A DNA stretch of 64,000 nt from Escherichia coli (GTDB lineage: Bacteria > Pseudomonadota > Gammaproteobacteria > Enterobacterales > Enterobacteriaceae): assembly GCF_050920415.1 (NCBI RefSeq), contig NZ_CP169309.1; one strand, written 5' to 3'. The position numbers and the translations under genes were made by a program. This document shows, piece after piece, positions 2,163-57,805 of the stretch. The notes under the pieces are model-generated. The model searched no databases. It was not told the DNA's origin and saw only the letters and a program-made list of their open reading frames with translations. The first letter of the stretch is position 1; the number at the start of each line of letters is the position of its first letter.

Positions 2163-3269
2163 TCAATGCGGTGTACGCCCGGTGTTAAAACGTTTTTCCA
2201 GATGTTGGCTATAACGTGACATGCTGAAACAGAAGATCCAGTAAATCAGTGCGGCGAAAACATAACCTTCCGTCGACATACCCAACCAGGCGGGATCAAC
2301 GGTTGCCTGCTGAACGCTACTGAAAAGATCGAACAACCCGATGATGATCACCAGGCTGGTATCTTTGAAGAGTGCGATGATGGTATTTACCAGCCCAGGA
2401 ATCACCAGCTTCAACGCCTGTGGCAAAATAACCAGCCCCTGGGTTTTCCAGTAACCCAACGCCAGCGACTCTGCCGCTTCATATTGCCCTTTAGGCAGCG
2501 CCTGTAATCCGCCTCGCACGACTTCCGCAACATATGCTGACTGAAACAGGATCACGCCAACCAGCGCGCGGATCAATTTGTCGATACTGGTGCCTTCTGC
2601 CATAAACAACGGCAGCATGACCGAAGACATAAACAGAACGGTAATCAGCGGTACACCGCGCCAGAACTCGATAAAAATGACCGATAAGATACGCACAATC
2701 GGCATATGGGAGCGGCGACCTAACGCCAGTAAGATCCCCCACGGCAGCGCCCCCGCAATCCCAACTGATGCAATAATTAAAGTGAGCGTCAGCCCGCCCC
2801 ATTGCCGGGTTTCAACCCGCTCAAGACCAAGAAACCCGCCATACATCAGCCACCAGACAATCAGTGGGTAAATCACCGCCCATACCGCAATATAGCGACC
2901 GCGATGCGGGAGTATTTTCCAGAACATTGGTGCGATAGAAACAAGGCCAATCAGTAATGCCAGGTTAATTCGCCAGCGTTGGTCGTGTGGGTAGAGCCCA
3001 TACATAAACTGACCGAATCGTTCGTGGATGAAGACCCAACAGGCACCTGCTTTTGTGCAGTCGGCACGCGTTGAGCCAACCCAATTAGCCTGCAAAAATG
3101 CCCAGTTCAGCAACGGTGGGATCAGTTCCCACATCAACCATATGCAGCCAATAGTCAGCAGGCTATTGCTCCAGCTGGAGAACAGATTTTTTCGCACCCA
3201 CACCATCGCGCGGCTTGAGTTATGGCTCGCCGGGCGCGGGGGATGAGACAGCAATACTTTTGTCATCAT
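2163..3269 (-). CDS. yhdY: amino-acid ABC transporter permease
   Basis: 368-aa polytopic membrane ORF; operon position between yhdZ and yhdX. Confidence 0.9.
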
Positions 3270-3275
3270 GACTCC

Positions 3276-4457
3276 TTAGCGTTCAACGATCGCGATGCGG
3301 CGGTTATAGATATTCATCAGCAGCGAGATAGTCAGGCTGATAATCAGATAGACCGACATGGTCATGGCTATCGTCTCGATGGCTTGCCCCGTCTGGTTCA
3401 GCACGGTGCCAGCAAACAGCGAAACCATATCGGGATAGCCAATAGCGGCGGCAAGAGAGGAGTTTTTGACGATGTTGAGATACTGGCTGGTTAACGGTGG
3501 AATAATCACCCGCAGTGCCTGGGGAATAATGACCTGGCGTAGCGTAACCGGGTTGGGTAATCCCAGTGACCGAGCAGCTTCATGTTGACCATAAGGCACT
3601 GCCTGGATCCCAGCGCGGATAATCTCGGCGATAAATGCAGAGGTATAAACCGAAAGTGCCAGCGTTAAGGCTGCCAGTTCAGGAATTAAAACCATCCCGC
3701 CACGGAAGTTAAAGCCTCGTAGGGCTGGAACATCCCAGTGTAGTGCTGCGCCAAAAAGCCATTGCGCCAGTAAAGGCAAACCGATGATCAACACAACGGC
3801 GACCGGCCAGGTTCGGCGCAATTGTCCGGTCTTTATCTGGTACGTTTTATTAAAACGGAATATTCCAACAGAAATGGCTATAGCAATAACAACAGTCAGG
3901 ATAAACGCAATAAATCCGTCTCCCAGCTGCGGCGACGGAATATAAAGCCCACGATTGCTTAAAAAGGCCAGATCAAACGCACTCACTGCCTGGCGTGGTC
4001 CGGGCAAATTGCGCAACACGGCAAAGTACCAGAAGAAGATTTGCAGTAGCGGCGGAATATTACGGAAGATCTCAATATAAATTGTGGAAAGCTTTCGTAG
4101 CAGCCAGTTATCCGAAAGTCGTGCCAGACCGATAAAGAAGCCCAGAACAGAAGCGAATACAATACACAATGCAGAAACCAGCAGCGTATTGAGTAAGCCA
4201 ACAATGAAAACGCGTCCGTAGGTATCACCCTGCTGGTAATCGATCAAATGCTGGACAATACCGAAGCCAGCGCCGCGATCCAGAAAGGCAAAACCCGAAG
4301 TAATGCCACGATTACTGAGATTCGTCACAGTGTTGTGAAATAGCCAACCAACAATGCCGACAACAGCAACAACGGCAAGGATCTGGAATAACCAGGCGCG
4401 AACCGTAGGGTTGGCAAAGGAGAGTGAGCCTTTAACGGTTGAGCGGCGATGAGACAT
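3276..4457 (-). CDS. yhdX: amino-acid ABC transporter permease
   Basis: Membrane permease ORF; the track ORF extends to 4475, internal Met MSHRRSTVKG chosen to match the ~393-aa length I expect. Confidence 0.85.
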   Translation of the reverse strand: MSHRRSTVKGSLSFANPTVRAWLFQILAVVAVVGIVGWLFHNTVTNLSNRGITSGFAFLDRGAGFGIVQHLIDYQQGDTYGRVFIVGLLNTLLVSALCIVFASVLGFFIGLARLSDNWLLRKLSTIYIEIFRNIPPLLQIFFWYFAVLRNLPGPRQAVSAFDLAFLSNRGLYIPSPQLGDGFIAFILTVVIAIAISVGIFRFNKTYQIKTGQLRRTWPVAVVLIIGLPLLAQWLFGAALHWDVPALRGFNFRGGMVLIPELAALTLALSVYTSAFIAEIIRAGIQAVPYGQHEAARSLGLPNPVTLRQVIIPQALRVIIPPLTSQYLNIVKNSSLAAAIGYPDMVSLFAGTVLNQTGQAIETIAMTMSVYLIISLTISLLMNIYNRRIAIVER

Positions 4458-4524: not shown

Positions 4525-5550
4525 TTAACGCACGGGCGGCGCGTACTGAATACCGCCGTTATTCCAGAGATTATTTTGCCCACGTTTAATCTTCAGGGGG
4601 CTTTCTGAACCTACGTTACGCTCAAAAATTTCCGAGTAATTACCCACCTGTTTGATGATGTTGTAAGCCCATTTATTATCCAGCTTCAGATCTTTACCGT
4701 AATCGCCCTCTTTACCCAGCAGATGCGCCATATCAGGCGTTGCAGGATTAGCCGCTTTTTCATCAACGTTTTGCGAATTAACGCCCATCTCTTCAGCATT
4801 CAGCATGGCGAAAAGCGTCCAGCGCACTATAGAGAACCATTCATCATCGCCACGACGAACTACCGGCCCAAGCGGTTCTTTAGAGATAACTTCCGGTAAA
4901 ACAATCCATTCAGCTGGGTTGCTTAATTTGATGCGCAGGGCATACAGTTGTGATTGATCCGAGGCCAGCGTATCGCAGCGGCCAGATTCCAGTGCCTTCG
5001 CGGATTCGTCAGAGCGATCGAAAGTCACTGGTGTGTACTTCATATTGTTTGCCTTGAAGTAATCGGCGACGTTGAGTTCGGTATCAGTACCCGCCTGAAT
5101 ACAGACTGTTGCGCCATCCAGTTCTTTCGCGCTTTTTAATCCCGCTTTATCGTGCGTCAGGAAACCAATGCCGTCATAATAAGTGACGCCAGTAAATGCC
5201 ATTCCCATACCGGCATCGCGAGAGGAAGTCCAGGTCGTATTACGGGAGAGCAAATCCACCTCCCCTGACTGTAAAGCCGTGAAGCGTTCTTTTGCAGTGA
5301 GCGGGGTATATTTCACTTTCGTGTCGTCACCAAATACAGCTGCCGCAACACCACGACAAACATCTACATCAATACCTGAAAACTTACCGTCAGCATCGGC
5401 ATAAGAGAACCCAGGTAATCCATCACTGATCCCGCATTGCACAAAACCTTTTTTCTGAACGGCATCAAGCGTCGCGCCAGCATGCGCCTGATTTGCAACG
5501 GCAAGCAGCACGCTGGCGGCAGCCAGTGTGGCTATCATCATCTTTTTCAT
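4525..5550 (-). CDS. yhdW: periplasmic amino-acid-binding protein of ABC transporter
   Basis: 341 aa with N-terminal signal peptide MKKMMIATLAAASVLLAVANQAHA. Confidence 0.9.
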   Translation of the reverse strand: MKKMMIATLAAASVLLAVANQAHAGATLDAVQKKGFVQCGISDGLPGFSYADADGKFSGIDVDVCRGVAAAVFGDDTKVKYTPLTAKERFTALQSGEVDLLSRNTTWTSSRDAGMGMAFTGVTYYDGIGFLTHDKAGLKSAKELDGATVCIQAGTDTELNVADYFKANNMKYTPVTFDRSDESAKALESGRCDTLASDQSQLYALRIKLSNPAEWIVLPEVISKEPLGPVVRRGDDEWFSIVRWTLFAMLNAEEMGVNSQNVDEKAANPATPDMAHLLGKEGDYGKDLKLDNKWAYNIIKQVGNYSEIFERNVGSESPLKIKRGQNNLWNNGGIQYAPPVR

Positions 5551-5980
5551 AATGCTTCCTGTGAGGCGAAAATTATCGTTATAGGACGTTTGGGAAACGT
5601 CTTTTACCTGTCTGTGGCCATCCTCTTATAAGCAAAAGTAGTGCCAGCTTTTGCGCACGATTTCGCGTCGCAATAAGCTGAGTGTAGACAGGAAATAATA
5701 AAAACAGCGCCCCGCAATGGTGCGAAAATGAAACATGCGCCACATTTTGGCGCAAAATATTTACGCATTTTTTACTAAGCAGAATAATGATTGTTAGCGT
5801 GAGTATATTTCTGGTAGGAAGTGTGAAAATTAAATTGATGCGTTATTTCGAAAGCAGCGAAATAACGCGATATAACATGCTAAATCAGCAGGGAATTACC
5901 CAGCAGAATATAGCAATATTTTATCTTATGGAGAGATACTGTATCGTTAAACAGAGCGCGGTACTCCGCGCCCTGTTCAG

Positions 5981-6202
5981 TTATTTCGACAGAGCGATGA
6001 TCCCCATCGTCAGGCCAGCAACAGCTGCTGCCCCGCCAGCAATAGCCCCAGCCGTTTCCCAGTTATCCTGAGTCGTGCCTTTCATACAGGTATTGGTGTG
6101 AACCAGTCGACCCTGATCGTCATAAACCGGAACGCAGGGCGAATCGTGAGCACAGCCCGCCAGCAATGCGGTGAGCAATGCTACAGGAATTAATCTTTTC
6201 AT
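5981..6202 (-). CDS. yhdV: small lipoprotein
   Basis: 73 aa with lipobox LLAGC near the N-terminus and Gly/Ala-rich C-terminus; expected position next to acrF. Confidence 0.8.
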   Translation of the reverse strand: MKRLIPVALLTALLAGCAHDSPCVPVYDDQGRLVHTNTCMKGTTQDNWETAGAIAGGAAAVAGLTMGIIALSK

Positions 6203-53917: not shown

Positions 53918-55250
<1,333 letters not shown>

Positions 55251-55267
55251 AACTTAGTTCGTTTTAA

Positions 55268-55296
55268 AGATTCTGCAGACACTGTCTGCAGAATTC
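55268..55296. repeat. perfect 11-bp-arm palindrome ATTCTGCAGAC-ACT-GTCTGCAGAAT between convergent nanQ and yhcG
   Basis: Read directly; same family as the three palindromes inside yhcG (core CAGAC-N3-GTCTG). Confidence 0.8.
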
Positions 55297-55309
55297 GAAA
55301 CCGCTGAAA

Positions 55310-56437
55310 TTAACGGCGTCTATAGCCTTCCTCTAGCACCGCTTGTGTTCGAACGAGTTCATCCGCGAGTCGTTTTTCATCAGGTAGTTGCATCTTATAT
55401 TCGCTTGCCAGAACGGTGTTAGGCAAACCAGCCAGTGCATAATGTGCTTCTCCGACTCCTTTTTCTGCACAGAGAACCAGACCGATGGGCGGATTTTCAT
55501 CCGGTAGCGTCCAGTGCTCTTTGGCGTAGTTGAGATACATATTCATCTGTCCGGCATCGCTATAGCTGAATTTGCCCACTTTTAGATCGACGATTAGCAG
55601 GCAGCGTAAACGGCGGTGGAAAAACAGCAGATCGACACGAAACCAGTTGTCATCAATGCGTAACCTTCGCTGTCGACCAACAAAGGCAAAATCATCCCCA
55701 AGTTCCAGCATGAAATCCATCAGGTGGTTGATCAGCGCCTCCTCAAAATCGGATTCTGAGTATTCATCTTTCAATTCCAAAAATTCGAGCACAAAGGGAT
55801 CGCGTATCGCCTGTTGCGGAAGAATATGCGTCTCGGCAGGGGCGTGTTGTTGCAGCATGGCTGATTTGTCATATGACAGTAGTGTCCGCTCATAAAATTG
55901 GGTCGCAATTTGCCGCTCTAGCTGGCGGACAGACCAACCACAGCGGAGCGCCTCTTTTTCATAAAAGCTGCGGGCGTCAGCGTTTTTAACGGAAAGTAGA
56001 CGGACGTAGGTGGACCAGGGCAGTGGGAAGGATTTGGCAGACAGCGTCTGCCAAATCTTTGCCGATGGGAATTCTGCAGACGGTGTCTGCGGAATTCCCA
56101 ATGGTGTTAATTCGCCAGACACTGTCTGGCGAATTTCAACATGTTGAAAAAAGAGGTAAAAAAGCCTCATTTGGCGTAAGTTTTTTGCAGAGAACCCACG
56201 CTTATACCTTAGACTTAAATCCTTTGAGAGCCGTTTGATAAGCTGTGCACCATAAGCCGCTCTGGCCTCGCCGCCTTGTTCAAATTCGACAATCCGTCGA
56301 CCAATTTCCCAGTATGTCGCGGTCATTAACGCGTTAACGCTACGTACCGTTTCCGTGCGGGCGCTATCGACCAGGTGAATAATACCGTCGTGGATTTGCT
56401 GGTAGCCTGCTGTGGTTCCTTCTGAGAGCGATTCCAT
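55310..56437 (-). CDS. yhcG: DUF1016-family protein with predicted PD-(D/E)xK nuclease fold
   Basis: 375-aa ORF; the motif LIVDLK resembles a PD-(D/E)xK core; contains three tandem 13-aa repeats encoded by DNA palindromes. Confidence 0.85.
   Translation of the reverse strand: MESLSEGTTAGYQQIHDGIIHLVDSARTETVRSVNALMTATYWEIGRRIVEFEQGGEARAAYGAQLIKRLSKDLSLRYKRGFSAKNLRQMRLFYLFFQHVEIRQTVSGELTPLGIPQTPSAEFPSAKIWQTLSAKSFPLPWSTYVRLLSVKNADARSFYEKEALRCGWSVRQLERQIATQFYERTLLSYDKSAMLQQHAPAETHILPQQAIRDPFVLEFLELKDEYSESDFEEALINHLMDFMLELGDDFAFVGRQRRLRIDDNWFRVDLLFFHRRLRCLLIVDLKVGKFSYSDAGQMNMYLNYAKEHWTLPDENPPIGLVLCAEKGVGEAHYALAGLPNTVLASEYKMQLPDEKRLADELVRTQAVLEEGYRRR
56026..56131. repeat. three tandem ~28-33 bp palindromes at ~39-bp period inside the yhcG coding region
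   Basis: GATTTGGCAGAC-AGC-GTCTGCCAAATC (56026..56053), GGGAATTCTGCAGAC-GGT-GTCTGCGGAATTCCC (56063..56095), AATTCGCCAGAC-ACT-GTCTGGCGAATT (56105..56131). Confidence 0.8.
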
Positions 56438-56635: not shown

Positions 56636-57805
56636 TCAGGAAGTTTCTCTTGCTGTCACTACGCCATTTTGCGCAGCCCACAGATTCACATCTTCCTTAC
56701 GAATGGCGGCGGCCATCATGCCGGGGAATAAATCAGGGGTACAGGCAAAGGAGGGAATACCCATGGCGGCGAGTTTTCCTGCCAGTGACCGGTCGTAAAA
56801 CGGTGCGCCTTCGTCGCTTAAGGCCAGCAGGGTAACCACCTGTACGCCGGACTGAATCAACTCACTGGCGCGTTGCAACAGATTGCGTTCCACACCACCT
56901 TCGTAGAGGTCGGAAATCAGCACCAGAATGGTATTACGCGGATCGCGAATCAAAGACTGGCAGTAACCTACCGCGCGGTTGATGTCGGTGCCGCCGCCCA
57001 GCTGCACGCCAAACAGCAGCTCTACCGGATCGTCGAGCTTCTCTGTCATATCAACCACTGCGGTGTCGAAAACCACCAGATGCGTTTTTACCGCCGGGAG
57101 CGATGCCATTACTGCGCCAAAAATACTGGAATAGACCACCGAGGAGGCCATCGACCCACTCTGGTCGATACATAAAATGATCTCCTTTTGCGTGCGTTGA
57201 GACTTGCGCCCGTAGCCGATTAACGTTTCAGGAACAATACTTTTGTACTCTTCCTGCCAGTGGCGCAGGTTGGCGCGAATGGTGCGCTGCCAGTCAATTT
57301 CCGCGTGGCGCGGGCGACGATTACGTACCGCACGATTAAGAGCGCCGCTTACCGCGCTACGCATTGGCTCTTCAAGCTGTTTCATCAATTGCTCGACAAC
57401 TTTACGCACCACAATCCTGGCGGTTTCTTTGGTTTTGGCCGGAATTACGCCATTCAGCGACATCAGCGTGGAGACCAGATGAACATCAGGCTGGACGTTT
57501 GCCAGCATCTCTGGCTCCAGCAACATACTGTGCAAATTAAGACGTTCAAAGGCGTCTTTTTGCATCACCTGAACCACAGAAGAGGGGAAATACTGGCGAA
57601 TATCACCCAGCCAGCGAGCGACTTTGGGTGACGATCCACCCGTGCCGCCGCGTAATCCATGTTTACCGTCTGGCTGATAGAGCGCCGCCAGCGCGGCATC
57701 AATCGCGGACTCTCTGGCATCCAGCGCCACGTTACAGGCATTGTCGGCATCTTCTCCAAGGATCAGACGCCAGCGGCGCAGCCGTTCCATCTCGTTACTC
57801 GACAT
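56636..57805 (-). CDS. von Willebrand factor type A (vWA) domain protein; last gene of five-gene operon
   Basis: 389-aa ORF with MIDAS-like motif D-x-S-x-S (ILCIDQSGSM) and downstream vWA-like hydrophobic strands; overlaps the upstream gene by 11 nt. Confidence 0.8.
   Translation of the reverse strand: MSSNEMERLRRWRLILGEDADNACNVALDARESAIDAALAALYQPDGKHGLRGGTGGSSPKVARWLGDIRQYFPSSVVQVMQKDAFERLNLHSMLLEPEMLANVQPDVHLVSTLMSLNGVIPAKTKETARIVVRKVVEQLMKQLEEPMRSAVSGALNRAVRNRRPRHAEIDWQRTIRANLRHWQEEYKSIVPETLIGYGRKSQRTQKEIILCIDQSGSMASSVVYSSIFGAVMASLPAVKTHLVVFDTAVVDMTEKLDDPVELLFGVQLGGGTDINRAVGYCQSLIRDPRNTILVLISDLYEGGVERNLLQRASELIQSGVQVVTLLALSDEGAPFYDRSLAGKLAAMGIPSFACTPDLFPGMMAAAIRKEDVNLWAAQNGVVTARETS

Follow-up and report, generated by a model that had tools for sequence, protein, structure and literature searches.

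Palindromic DNA sites occur in several well-described settings. Auxiliary operators such as lac O2 and gal OI are two-fold symmetric sites that lie within coding sequences, those of lacZ and galE. Repetitive extragenic palindromic (REP) sequences and bacterial interspersed mosaic elements (BIMEs) lie between genes and are associated with the REP-associated tyrosine transposases (RAYTs). The Rickettsia palindromic elements (RPEs) and the coding palindromes of Nematomorpha mitochondria (PMC6649704) are translated in frame, and the ColE1 inverted repeat is a well-known substrate for cruciform extrusion. The control boxes (C-boxes) of restriction-modification controllers and the operators of toxin-antitoxin systems are palindromes that limit expression of their own toxic module. 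Here, we describe a palindrome at the yhcG locus of Escherichia coli, in a 64,000-nucleotide stretch ("the window") of contig NZ_CP169309.1 from assembly GCF_050920415.1. It is present three times in tandem inside yhcG, which encodes a nuclease of the DUF1016/YhcG family, and once just outside it. The palindrome is very probably one nucleic-acid element of the whole YhcG/DUF1016 family, fixed in position, translated in frame and maintained at the nucleotide level, and the E. coli array is its 39-bp amplification. The element is apparently undescribed, as no description of it was found in the full-text literature on yhcG, DUF1016, COG4804, PF06250 and PDC-S02.

The core CAGACNNNGTCTG occurs four times in the 64 kb against 0.02 expected, and 0 of 100 dinucleotide-preserving shuffles reached four occurrences. 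The cores, of the form CAGAC-N3-GTCTG, start at 55276, 56038, 56077 and 56116, and are about 200-fold above chance. A chance origin is thus excluded. An earlier reading of the letters alone (the sequence-only reading) had reported three in-frame tandem copies in yhcG with a period of about 39 bp and 13-residue peptide repeats, and a fourth, perfect copy in the 59-bp gap between nanQ and yhcG. All four were located, P2 to P4 in the gene and P0 in the gap, with arms of 12-15 bp that are perfect except for one mismatch in P3; the chance-level frequency that this reading had allowed for was not seen. The in-gene centres, at 56044, 56083 and 56122, are exactly 39 bp apart, which keeps the frame and gives three 13-residue units. 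P2 to P4 read CAG ACN NNG TCT G on the coding strand, and their centres coincide with the first base of a codon. The middle triplets of the three E. coli units are TGG/CCA, CTG/CGG (one mismatch) and CGC/GCG. The palindromes are flanked by AATT or AAAATT, with an A-run downstream of the stem.

The same element is present in distant relatives of YhcG. A search of 1.84 billion representative proteins gave 24,608 representative clusters at E <= 0.001, and 80 diverse loci from species genomes and 48 loci from viral contigs were fetched. The 80 loci span Bacteroidota, Nitrospira, cyanobacteria, candidate-phyla bacteria, DPANN archaea, Proteobacteria and Planctomycetota. In many relatives, this linker contains between one and five units of the 'x-Q-T-x-S-[GA]' type, or odd variants such as ATVSRK, RDALRLE and HNSVVEI. 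At least one near-perfect linker palindrome (arms of 7-14 bp, 1-3-nt centre) was found in 83 of 109 distinct DUF1016/YhcG genes (76%). The scan for loci used a 13-sequence alignment. The 200 nt that precede the Trp codon of the LSWSHY motif contain 3.54 perfect palindromes per kb (arms >= 8, loop <= 3), compared with 0.154 per kb in the rest of the 70 loci, where they are 23-fold rarer (Poisson P ~3e-50), and 44 of the 70 loci have such a palindrome. The centre falls on the first base of a codon (codon phase 0) for 92 of the 97 palindrome centres in the 109 genes, and its commonest position, in 35 of the 97, is exactly 18 nt before the Trp codon. P2 to P4 of the window conform to this description, being near-perfect palindromes with a 1-3-nt centre in codon phase 0 before LSWSHY. 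The consensus of the element is A-W-W-n3-CAGAC-n3-GTCTG-n3-W-W-T, about 25-31 bp in length and symmetric almost to the centre. Salmonella orthologues retain it as ATTCCGCAGACA-C-TGTCTGCGGAAT. The element is normally single-copy in the family, and tandem units are found in E. coli. As its position and codon phase are fixed, inheritance along with the gene is favoured over repeated insertion. A Woesearchaeota genome bin (L014) contains two DUF1016 paralogues (2983-3987 and 5129-6142) on the same strand, about 1.1 kb apart, and both contain a linker palindrome of their own (AATTTGGCAGACA.. and TTCCAGACA..).

The symmetry of the DNA is not a consequence of the peptide that it encodes. When motifs were chosen by the peptide QT.S alone (n=55), with codons elsewhere in the same genes as background, Ser was encoded by TCT in 55/55 (18% in the background; P = 2e-40), Thr by ACA in 49/55 (89% vs 33%) and Gln by CAG in 44/55 (80% vs 47%). 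These preferred codons are exactly the synonyms that complete the palindrome. Besides the commonest core, CAGAC-N3-GTCTG, there are GGGAC/GTCCC, GACGC/GCGTC, CAGAA-GCC-TTCTG, CAGGC/GCCTG, CAGTC/GACTG, CACGC/GCGTG and others; alternative cores encode GTLS, DALR, QKPS, QAVP and QSVT, yet they stay palindromic. Among 88 centre-aligned palindromes, both sides change in 12 of 13 pairs, a count that is only descriptive given that the set was pre-selected for palindromy; the covariation score is 0.604, compared with 0.18 in shuffles and <= 0.13 when the partner is slid. Position -12 is A and position +12 is T, nearly without variation, and the codons begun there encode I/K/N on one side and L/F/S on the other. 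Two Salmonella alleles differ by a compensated change of C:G to A:T, by which P..A becomes Q..G. The constraint acts on nucleotides, not on the encoded peptide, and a peptide-driven repeat is ruled out by the codon test and by the cores that encode unrelated peptides. The sequence-only reading had suspected selection at the DNA or RNA level because the arms looked better kept than the peptides, and the codon test and the arm covariation agree with it on this point. It had also considered that orthologues might keep the peptide repeats and lack the palindrome; in Salmonella and in homologues from distant phyla, the palindrome is retained also where the peptide is another one. Annotators and modellers of protein repeats should note that the symmetry of the DNA gives rise to the 'I.QT.S' repeats as a by-product. 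A 71-aa antisense open reading frame (ORF) on the plus strand of the window (56023-56238; RIWQTASAKSLPMGILQTVSAEFPMVLIRQTLSGEF) reflects the repeats of YhcG, since the two strands of a palindrome encode almost identical peptides; it is most likely another by-product and not a gene.

The pattern of changes also bears on the form in which the palindrome is used. Only 35 mismatches were found in 1,087 pairs, namely 4 G:T, 14 A:C and 17 transversions, the A:C excess coming partly from two duplicate pairs and from codons that favour synonymous changes producing A:C. There is no G:U excess, and wobble pairs of a sense-strand RNA are not preferentially tolerated. In most palindromes, complementarity extends to the single central base; a hairpin loop would not need such pairing, which favours DNA over sense RNA. 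The type of core tracks the protein subfamily: ..GC-N3-GC.. is found in 16/21 of the WTH subfamily (LSWTHY) and ..AC-N3-GT.. in 60/69 of the WSH subfamily (LSWSHY), with Fisher P = 1.5e-12 before any correction for phylogeny. The middle triplets change fast and stay complementary. The features of the E. coli locus are collected in the table.

Table. Palindromes and genes of the yhcG locus, in window coordinates
Feature	Position	Strand	Description
P0, orphan, intergenic	55270-55294	none	ATTCTGCAGACA-C-TGTCTGCAGAAT; perfect 12-bp arms
P2, in-gene	56031-56057	minus	GATTTGGCAGAC-AGC-GTCTGCCAAATC; perfect 12-bp arms; encodes third peptide unit, IWQTLSAKSFPLP
P3, in-gene	56067-56099	minus	GGGAATTCTGCAGAC-GGT-GTCTGCGGAATTCCC; 15-bp arms, one mismatch; encodes second peptide unit, IPQTPSAEFPSAK
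P4, in-gene	56109-56135	minus	AATTCGCCAGACA-C-TGTCTGGCGAATT; perfect 13-bp arms; encodes first peptide unit, IRQTVSGELTPLG
Array of three 39-bp units	56020-56140	minus	YhcG linker (~residues 100-139); centres 39 bp apart
yhcG	55310-56437	minus	375-aa ORF; DUF1016_N and YhcG_C PD-(D/E)XK nuclease domain; stop codon 55310-55312
nanQ (yhcH)	54786-55250	plus	ORF; RefSeq E. coli annotation; convergent neighbour bounding the P0 gap

Copies outside the linker are uncommon. Extra-genic partner copies are present in only ~5% of loci, and as a general feature they were rejected on this count. On an Arthrobacter plasmid (L114), a promoter-side copy has 13-nt arms identical to those of the in-gene copy and is centred 52 nt upstream of the ATG; two further loci (L038 and L128) have promoter-side copies with the same arms as their in-gene copies, and one (L077) has an upstream copy only. 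A reverse search of the viral contigs with AATT-N3-CAGAC-N3-GTCTG-N3-AATT found 26 sites, 15 of them inside DUF1016 ORFs, 1 upstream of a socA-mazF-DUF1016 operon (L112) and 10 orphans. The unconstrained N3 of these sites is almost always complementary. Eight of the 11 sites outside DUF1016 ORFs overlap no ORF of at least 60 aa, and three (L099, L106, L110) overlap uncharacterised ORFs. The orphans adjoin RhuM, AbiEii, SocA/MazF-like modules or a serine integrase, often as adjacent pairs 23-35 nt apart (L113 4711-4765 and 6033-6087; L100 8860-8915; L112 10566-10621; L099 9937-9990). In L113, the two pairs have repeated flanks of > 100 nt and lie on either side of a SocA/MazF-like toxin-antitoxin cassette beside an ORF that is integrase-like as judged by its N-terminal sequence only, and the pair of L099 abuts the start of the serine integrase gene. 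Single orphans lie ~90 nt upstream of a RhuM gene (L091 5812-5838), at the stop codon of an AbiEii toxin gene (L098 6505-6531) and ~30 nt past the stop of a small ORF (L090 3423-3449); this small ORF follows a 365-aa ORF that, by its sequence only, resembles an ATPase. The defence islands that hold DUF1016 also contain RhuM and AbiEii as accessory genes. On two Paraburkholderia plasmids, an HU-family gene immediately precedes DUF1016, with a 4-nt overlap in one (L118 5426-6858) and an 11-nt gap in the other (L119 5209-6641). HU prefers bent and cruciform DNA, and its gene beside DUF1016 may bear on the use of the palindrome.

Within E. coli, the element is confined to the yhcG locus and varies in number. 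A BLAST search with the 41-nt intergenic copy found, among the matches listed, 1-6 places per E. coli genome (median 3), which fits copies at the yhcG locus only and no dispersed repeat. The dispersed miniature element envisaged by the sequence-only reading is not supported. A dispersed repeat of the REP/BIME type was rejected on the same result and because all four copies in 64 kb are at yhcG. An in-frame selfish element of the RPE kind was also rejected, as the E. coli copies are confined to the yhcG locus and 15 of the 26 viral-contig sites are in DUF1016 ORFs. A clustered regularly interspaced short palindromic repeats (CRISPR) array was dismissed because the three units are inside an ORF and the 9-12-nt spacers code for part of the same peptide repeat; cas genes were not searched for. 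The variation in copy number that the earlier reading had suggested looking for among strains does exist: alleles with 1, 2 or 3 units encode proteins of 349, 362 and 375 aa, and the three-unit form has, by a wide margin, the largest number of member sequences. One-unit alleles join the first unit to the last as hybrids, at several different crossover points, so that contraction has happened repeatedly. A second E. coli yhcG lineage (358-391 aa) is nearly identical elsewhere, and its divergence is concentrated in ~250 nt around the palindromes. In strain WP2-W18-ESBL-10 (L002), the region that corresponds to 55970-56200 of the window has two units with different arms (CTCCAGAC, GTGCAGAC). This divergent zone looks like local recombination or a hypervariable patch. 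In strain tcmA_3 (L004, ~1560-2026), a foreign segment of ~470 bp replaces the C-terminal two thirds of yhcG together with P0; it carries a 101-aa gene annotated 'transposase', and its right junction is at the outer edge of P2. Two other truncated yhcG alleles are ordinary insertion sequence (IS) events, by IS1 and IS3, with one breakpoint in P2 and one elsewhere. They are uninformative on IS targeting of the palindrome, which was rejected as an explanation.

P0 is 15 nt past the yhcG stop codon and follows closely on two stop codons; in the yhcG reading frame it reads RRR*FQRFRILQTVSAES. An E. coli strain that has no yhcG (L005) keeps a P0 variant between nanQ and gltD (GCCAGAC..GTCTGGC), which differs from P0 of the window by four fully compensated changes and has the arms of P4. 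The nanQ-gltD interval is a variable island, and P0 forms its edge on the nanQ side. The frame after the yhcG TAA stop (window 55251-55312) resembles the linker FQRIEILQTVSGEF of the second E. coli allele lineage, and the 15 nt on the N-terminal side of P0 match the flank of an in-gene unit at 9/15 positions by manual count. P0 may perhaps be a relic of an older yhcG linker, left by an earlier gene end or a duplicated linker; the peptide likeness is weak evidence for this, as the palindrome itself fixes most of that peptide.

RefSeq E. coli genomes annotate the same genes here, and the window strain is ~96% identical to K-12 in the region. YhcG belongs to the DUF1016 nuclease family, with DUF1016_N followed by YhcG_C: homologues at 90-98% identity carry PF17761 (DUF1016_N) and PF06250 (YhcG_C). 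The PADLOC model PDC-S02, a candidate anti-phage defence gene, matches residues 9-370 (E = 2.5e-135). Sequence searches of NCBIfam and of PDB structures with YhcG gave no match. The AlphaFold model (mean predicted local distance difference test score, pLDDT, 79) has a helical N-domain at residues 9-96. The linker has pLDDT < 50 at residues 105-127 and no secondary structure, with only a short helix before residue 141. In this model, the part encoded by the repeat units is a linker with no confidently predicted structure, which joins the N-terminal helical domain to the LSWSHY/PD-(D/E)XK part. The nearest folds of the nuclease domain are NucS/EndoMS, in agreement with Kosinski et al. 2005 (PMC1189080). 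A yhcG deletion is reported to be synthetic lethal in combination with hypomorphs of dnaB, dnaN and parE, as is an association of YhcG with HsdMRS and with McrABC (PMC2672614). DUF1016/YhcG genes are common in type I restriction-modification loci and mobile elements (PMC9881135, PMC4316617). A stationary-phase non-coding RNA of E. coli K-12, G0-10703, is reported to be divergent from yhcG, with a predicted 128-bp overlap with the yhcG 5' untranslated region (PMC7967276); this RNA does not reach the palindromes. On its 5' side, yhcG is adjoined by a 389-aa ORF (window 56636-57805, minus strand). In strain MEW, the corresponding ORF carries the annotation of a VWA-domain protein, with DUF5682 next to it, and the same position is held by yhcF in K-12 and by gltD in other strains.

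As to function, we tentatively propose that the palindrome is a cis-acting, two-fold symmetric DNA site, capable of forming a hairpin or cruciform, that is recognised by a dimeric nuclease, most simply YhcG. This proposal, which is possible rather than probable, draws on arms that are symmetric up to the centre, on mismatches that bear no wobble signature, on cores specific to the subfamily and on the promoter-side twins. It also draws on the NucS-like domain, the HU gene upstream of DUF1016 and the reported links of yhcG to replication and topology genes (PMC2672614). A dimeric protein would recognise the site, and YhcG, whose nuclease domain resembles the dimeric NucS/EndoMS, would be the most economical candidate. 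Binding would tie YhcG to its own gene, by autoregulation or by loading in cis. The subfamily-specific core would be read sequence-specifically, and the fast-changing middle triplets would need only to be complementary. Where, occasionally, a second copy is present in the promoter or the 3' flank, it would serve as an auxiliary site, like lac O2 and gal OI. A broader and more doubtful form of the idea is that the palindrome may be a gene-embedded control element of a new kind, a site able to form a hairpin or cruciform that lies inside the coding sequence of a defence-type PD-(D/E)XK nuclease and is recognised by this same nuclease. Such a site could couple DNA topology or replication state to expression or activation of the enzyme, and portable orphan copies might serve neighbouring defence or toxin cassettes in the same way.

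Several points weigh against the proposal of a protein-bound site. YhcG as the protein partner is something that we infer, and it is unusual for an operator to lie 300-400 bp inside a coding sequence and to lack a promoter copy in ~95% of loci. The link between core and subfamily could come from shared ancestry alone, and the covariation count bears the limit given above. The middle triplets of the E. coli units, which differ and are each internally complementary, point to intrastrand pairing or templated correction, because a dimer reading its half-sites independently would not need complementary triplets. The orphan copies beside unrelated cassettes show that the element can exist without a nearby DUF1016 gene. 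The rivals to be considered are, in falling order, an mRNA hairpin, a neutral palindrome kept by template-switch correction, a recombination or cassette-boundary site and an inversion switch, the last of which is largely excluded as far as fixed states are concerned.

An mRNA hairpin would gate or slow translation between the two domains or control decay and processing, with P0 as a 3' stabiliser of the convergent transcripts. The array folds as RNA into three strong hairpins (-64.4 kcal/mol, z = -10.9), its location exactly between the two domains suits a translational pause, and P0 and the orphans of L090 and L098 come just after stop codons. P0 also folds into a hairpin as DNA (z = -3.9). 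This explanation nevertheless seems unlikely, given the lack of a G:U excess on the sense strand (4 G:T vs 14 A:C), the pairing up to a single central base and the copies upstream of promoters, which would be outside the mRNA or at its extreme 5' end. The element has no U-tract and is not terminator-like. A Rho-independent terminator was rejected, as there is no T-run and a terminator scan reported none of the four sites, and so was an Rfam RNA family, as the sole match, mir-3913, was at chance level (22.7 bits against a gathering score of 100, E = 0.49). A neutral origin does without a function altogether: template switching during replication would copy arm onto arm in an unconstrained linker, and the palindrome would persist and drift. 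Template-switch correction is far faster than point mutation at E. coli quasi-palindromes. The linker has no confident structure and its peptide may be nearly free to change, the mismatches are rare and have no RNA signature, and the arms evolve in concert, as in the P0 variant of L005. What makes this account rather improbable is how much it leaves unexplained, namely a palindrome at the same codon in 76% of very divergent genes, the subfamily-specific cores with their near-invariant A at -12 and T at +12, the identical promoter-region copies and the surviving intergenic orphans. Such palindromes are also 23-fold rarer elsewhere in the same loci.

The rearrangements at the locus could suggest a site of recombination or mobility, that is, a hotspot, recognition site or footprint for swapping gene halves or neighbouring defence cassettes, similar to a cassette boundary or an in-frame palindromic element. 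The paired orphans of L113 around a cassette and of L099 at an integrase, the tcmA_3 junction at the P2 edge, the concentrated divergence of the E. coli lineages, the repeated origin of one-unit alleles and the island bounded by P0 are all consistent with it. Most loci, however, carry the in-gene copy alone and are not close to a recombinase, the element is not dispersed in E. coli, the two other rearrangements are ordinary IS1/IS3 events, and the fixed position and codon phase favour inheritance with the gene, so that we consider this explanation improbable. An invertible or phase switch, in which recombination between P0 and an in-gene copy flips or deletes the nuclease segment or the number of units toggles expression ON and OFF, has the least to recommend it. 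The palindromes are direct and inverted repeats at once, P0 and P2 to P4 bracket the nuclease-coding part, the unit number differs among strains, and DUF1016 genes are enriched beside targets of programmed inversion (PMC9881135). However, this enrichment comes from loci in which inversion acts on hsdS or other specificity genes, and in most family members the single copy lacks a partner site. No P0xP2 or P0xP4 inversion junction was present in 5,426 complete E. coli genomes, by which a programmed-inversion (shufflon-type) site was rejected, and changes in unit number are multiples of 39 bp that keep the frame. As a result, the classical ON/OFF phase-variable module suggested by the sequence-only reading is not borne out, and a switch of this kind is very improbable.

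DUF1016/YhcG is a very large nuclease family without a characterised function, and the palindrome provides a concrete, testable handle on it. It supplies a likely DNA ligand for the family, and it can be destroyed by synonymous changes alone. The palindrome is also an unusually clear case of nucleotide-level selection that overrides both codon choice and peptide within a bacterial gene.

How, then, does the element compare with the systems described before? Like lac O2 and gal OI, it is a two-fold symmetric DNA site inside a coding sequence that can work with a promoter copy, and identical-arm promoter copies exist in L114, L038 and L128. Unlike in these operators, the copy usually present is the in-gene one, and promoter copies are exceptional; the palindrome is near-perfect, its unread positions are complementary, it is conserved across a family in many phyla, and its binder is putative. 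With REP/BIME sequences and their RAYTs it shares the short hairpin-forming structure, a sequence that co-varies with an associated nuclease-type gene and copies that adjoin this gene. REPs, however, are intergenic, imperfect, GC-rich and dispersed in hundreds, whereas the YhcG element is coding and found at its own locus only (1-6 places per E. coli genome), and the enzymes differ as well, PD-(D/E)XK for YhcG and HUH/Y1 for RAYTs. The Rickettsia and Nematomorpha elements are likewise translated in frame in insertion-tolerant regions, but they are 100-280 bp long and occur in many unrelated genes per genome, in contrast to a 25-31-bp element at one homologous codon of one family in bacteria and archaea. 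As in the ColE1 repeat with its 13-bp arms, the 12-14-bp arms and AT-rich ends are in the range that extrudes under supercoiling, and the NucS/Hjc-like PD-(D/E)XK domain of YhcG recalls junction-resolving nucleases, although extrusion and cleavage are only predicted for YhcG. To our knowledge, there is no described precedent for a nuclease gene that carries its own substrate. The C-boxes and toxin-antitoxin operators resemble the element as palindromic operators of a toxic module, all the more so as orphan copies lie upstream of a SocA/MazF-like operon, but they are placed in promoters and not in coding linkers, and their arms have no family-wide covariation. In summary, the YhcG palindrome matches none of the nearest systems, whether auxiliary operators, REP/RAYT, the Rickettsia and Nematomorpha elements or cruciform substrates, on the features that define them.

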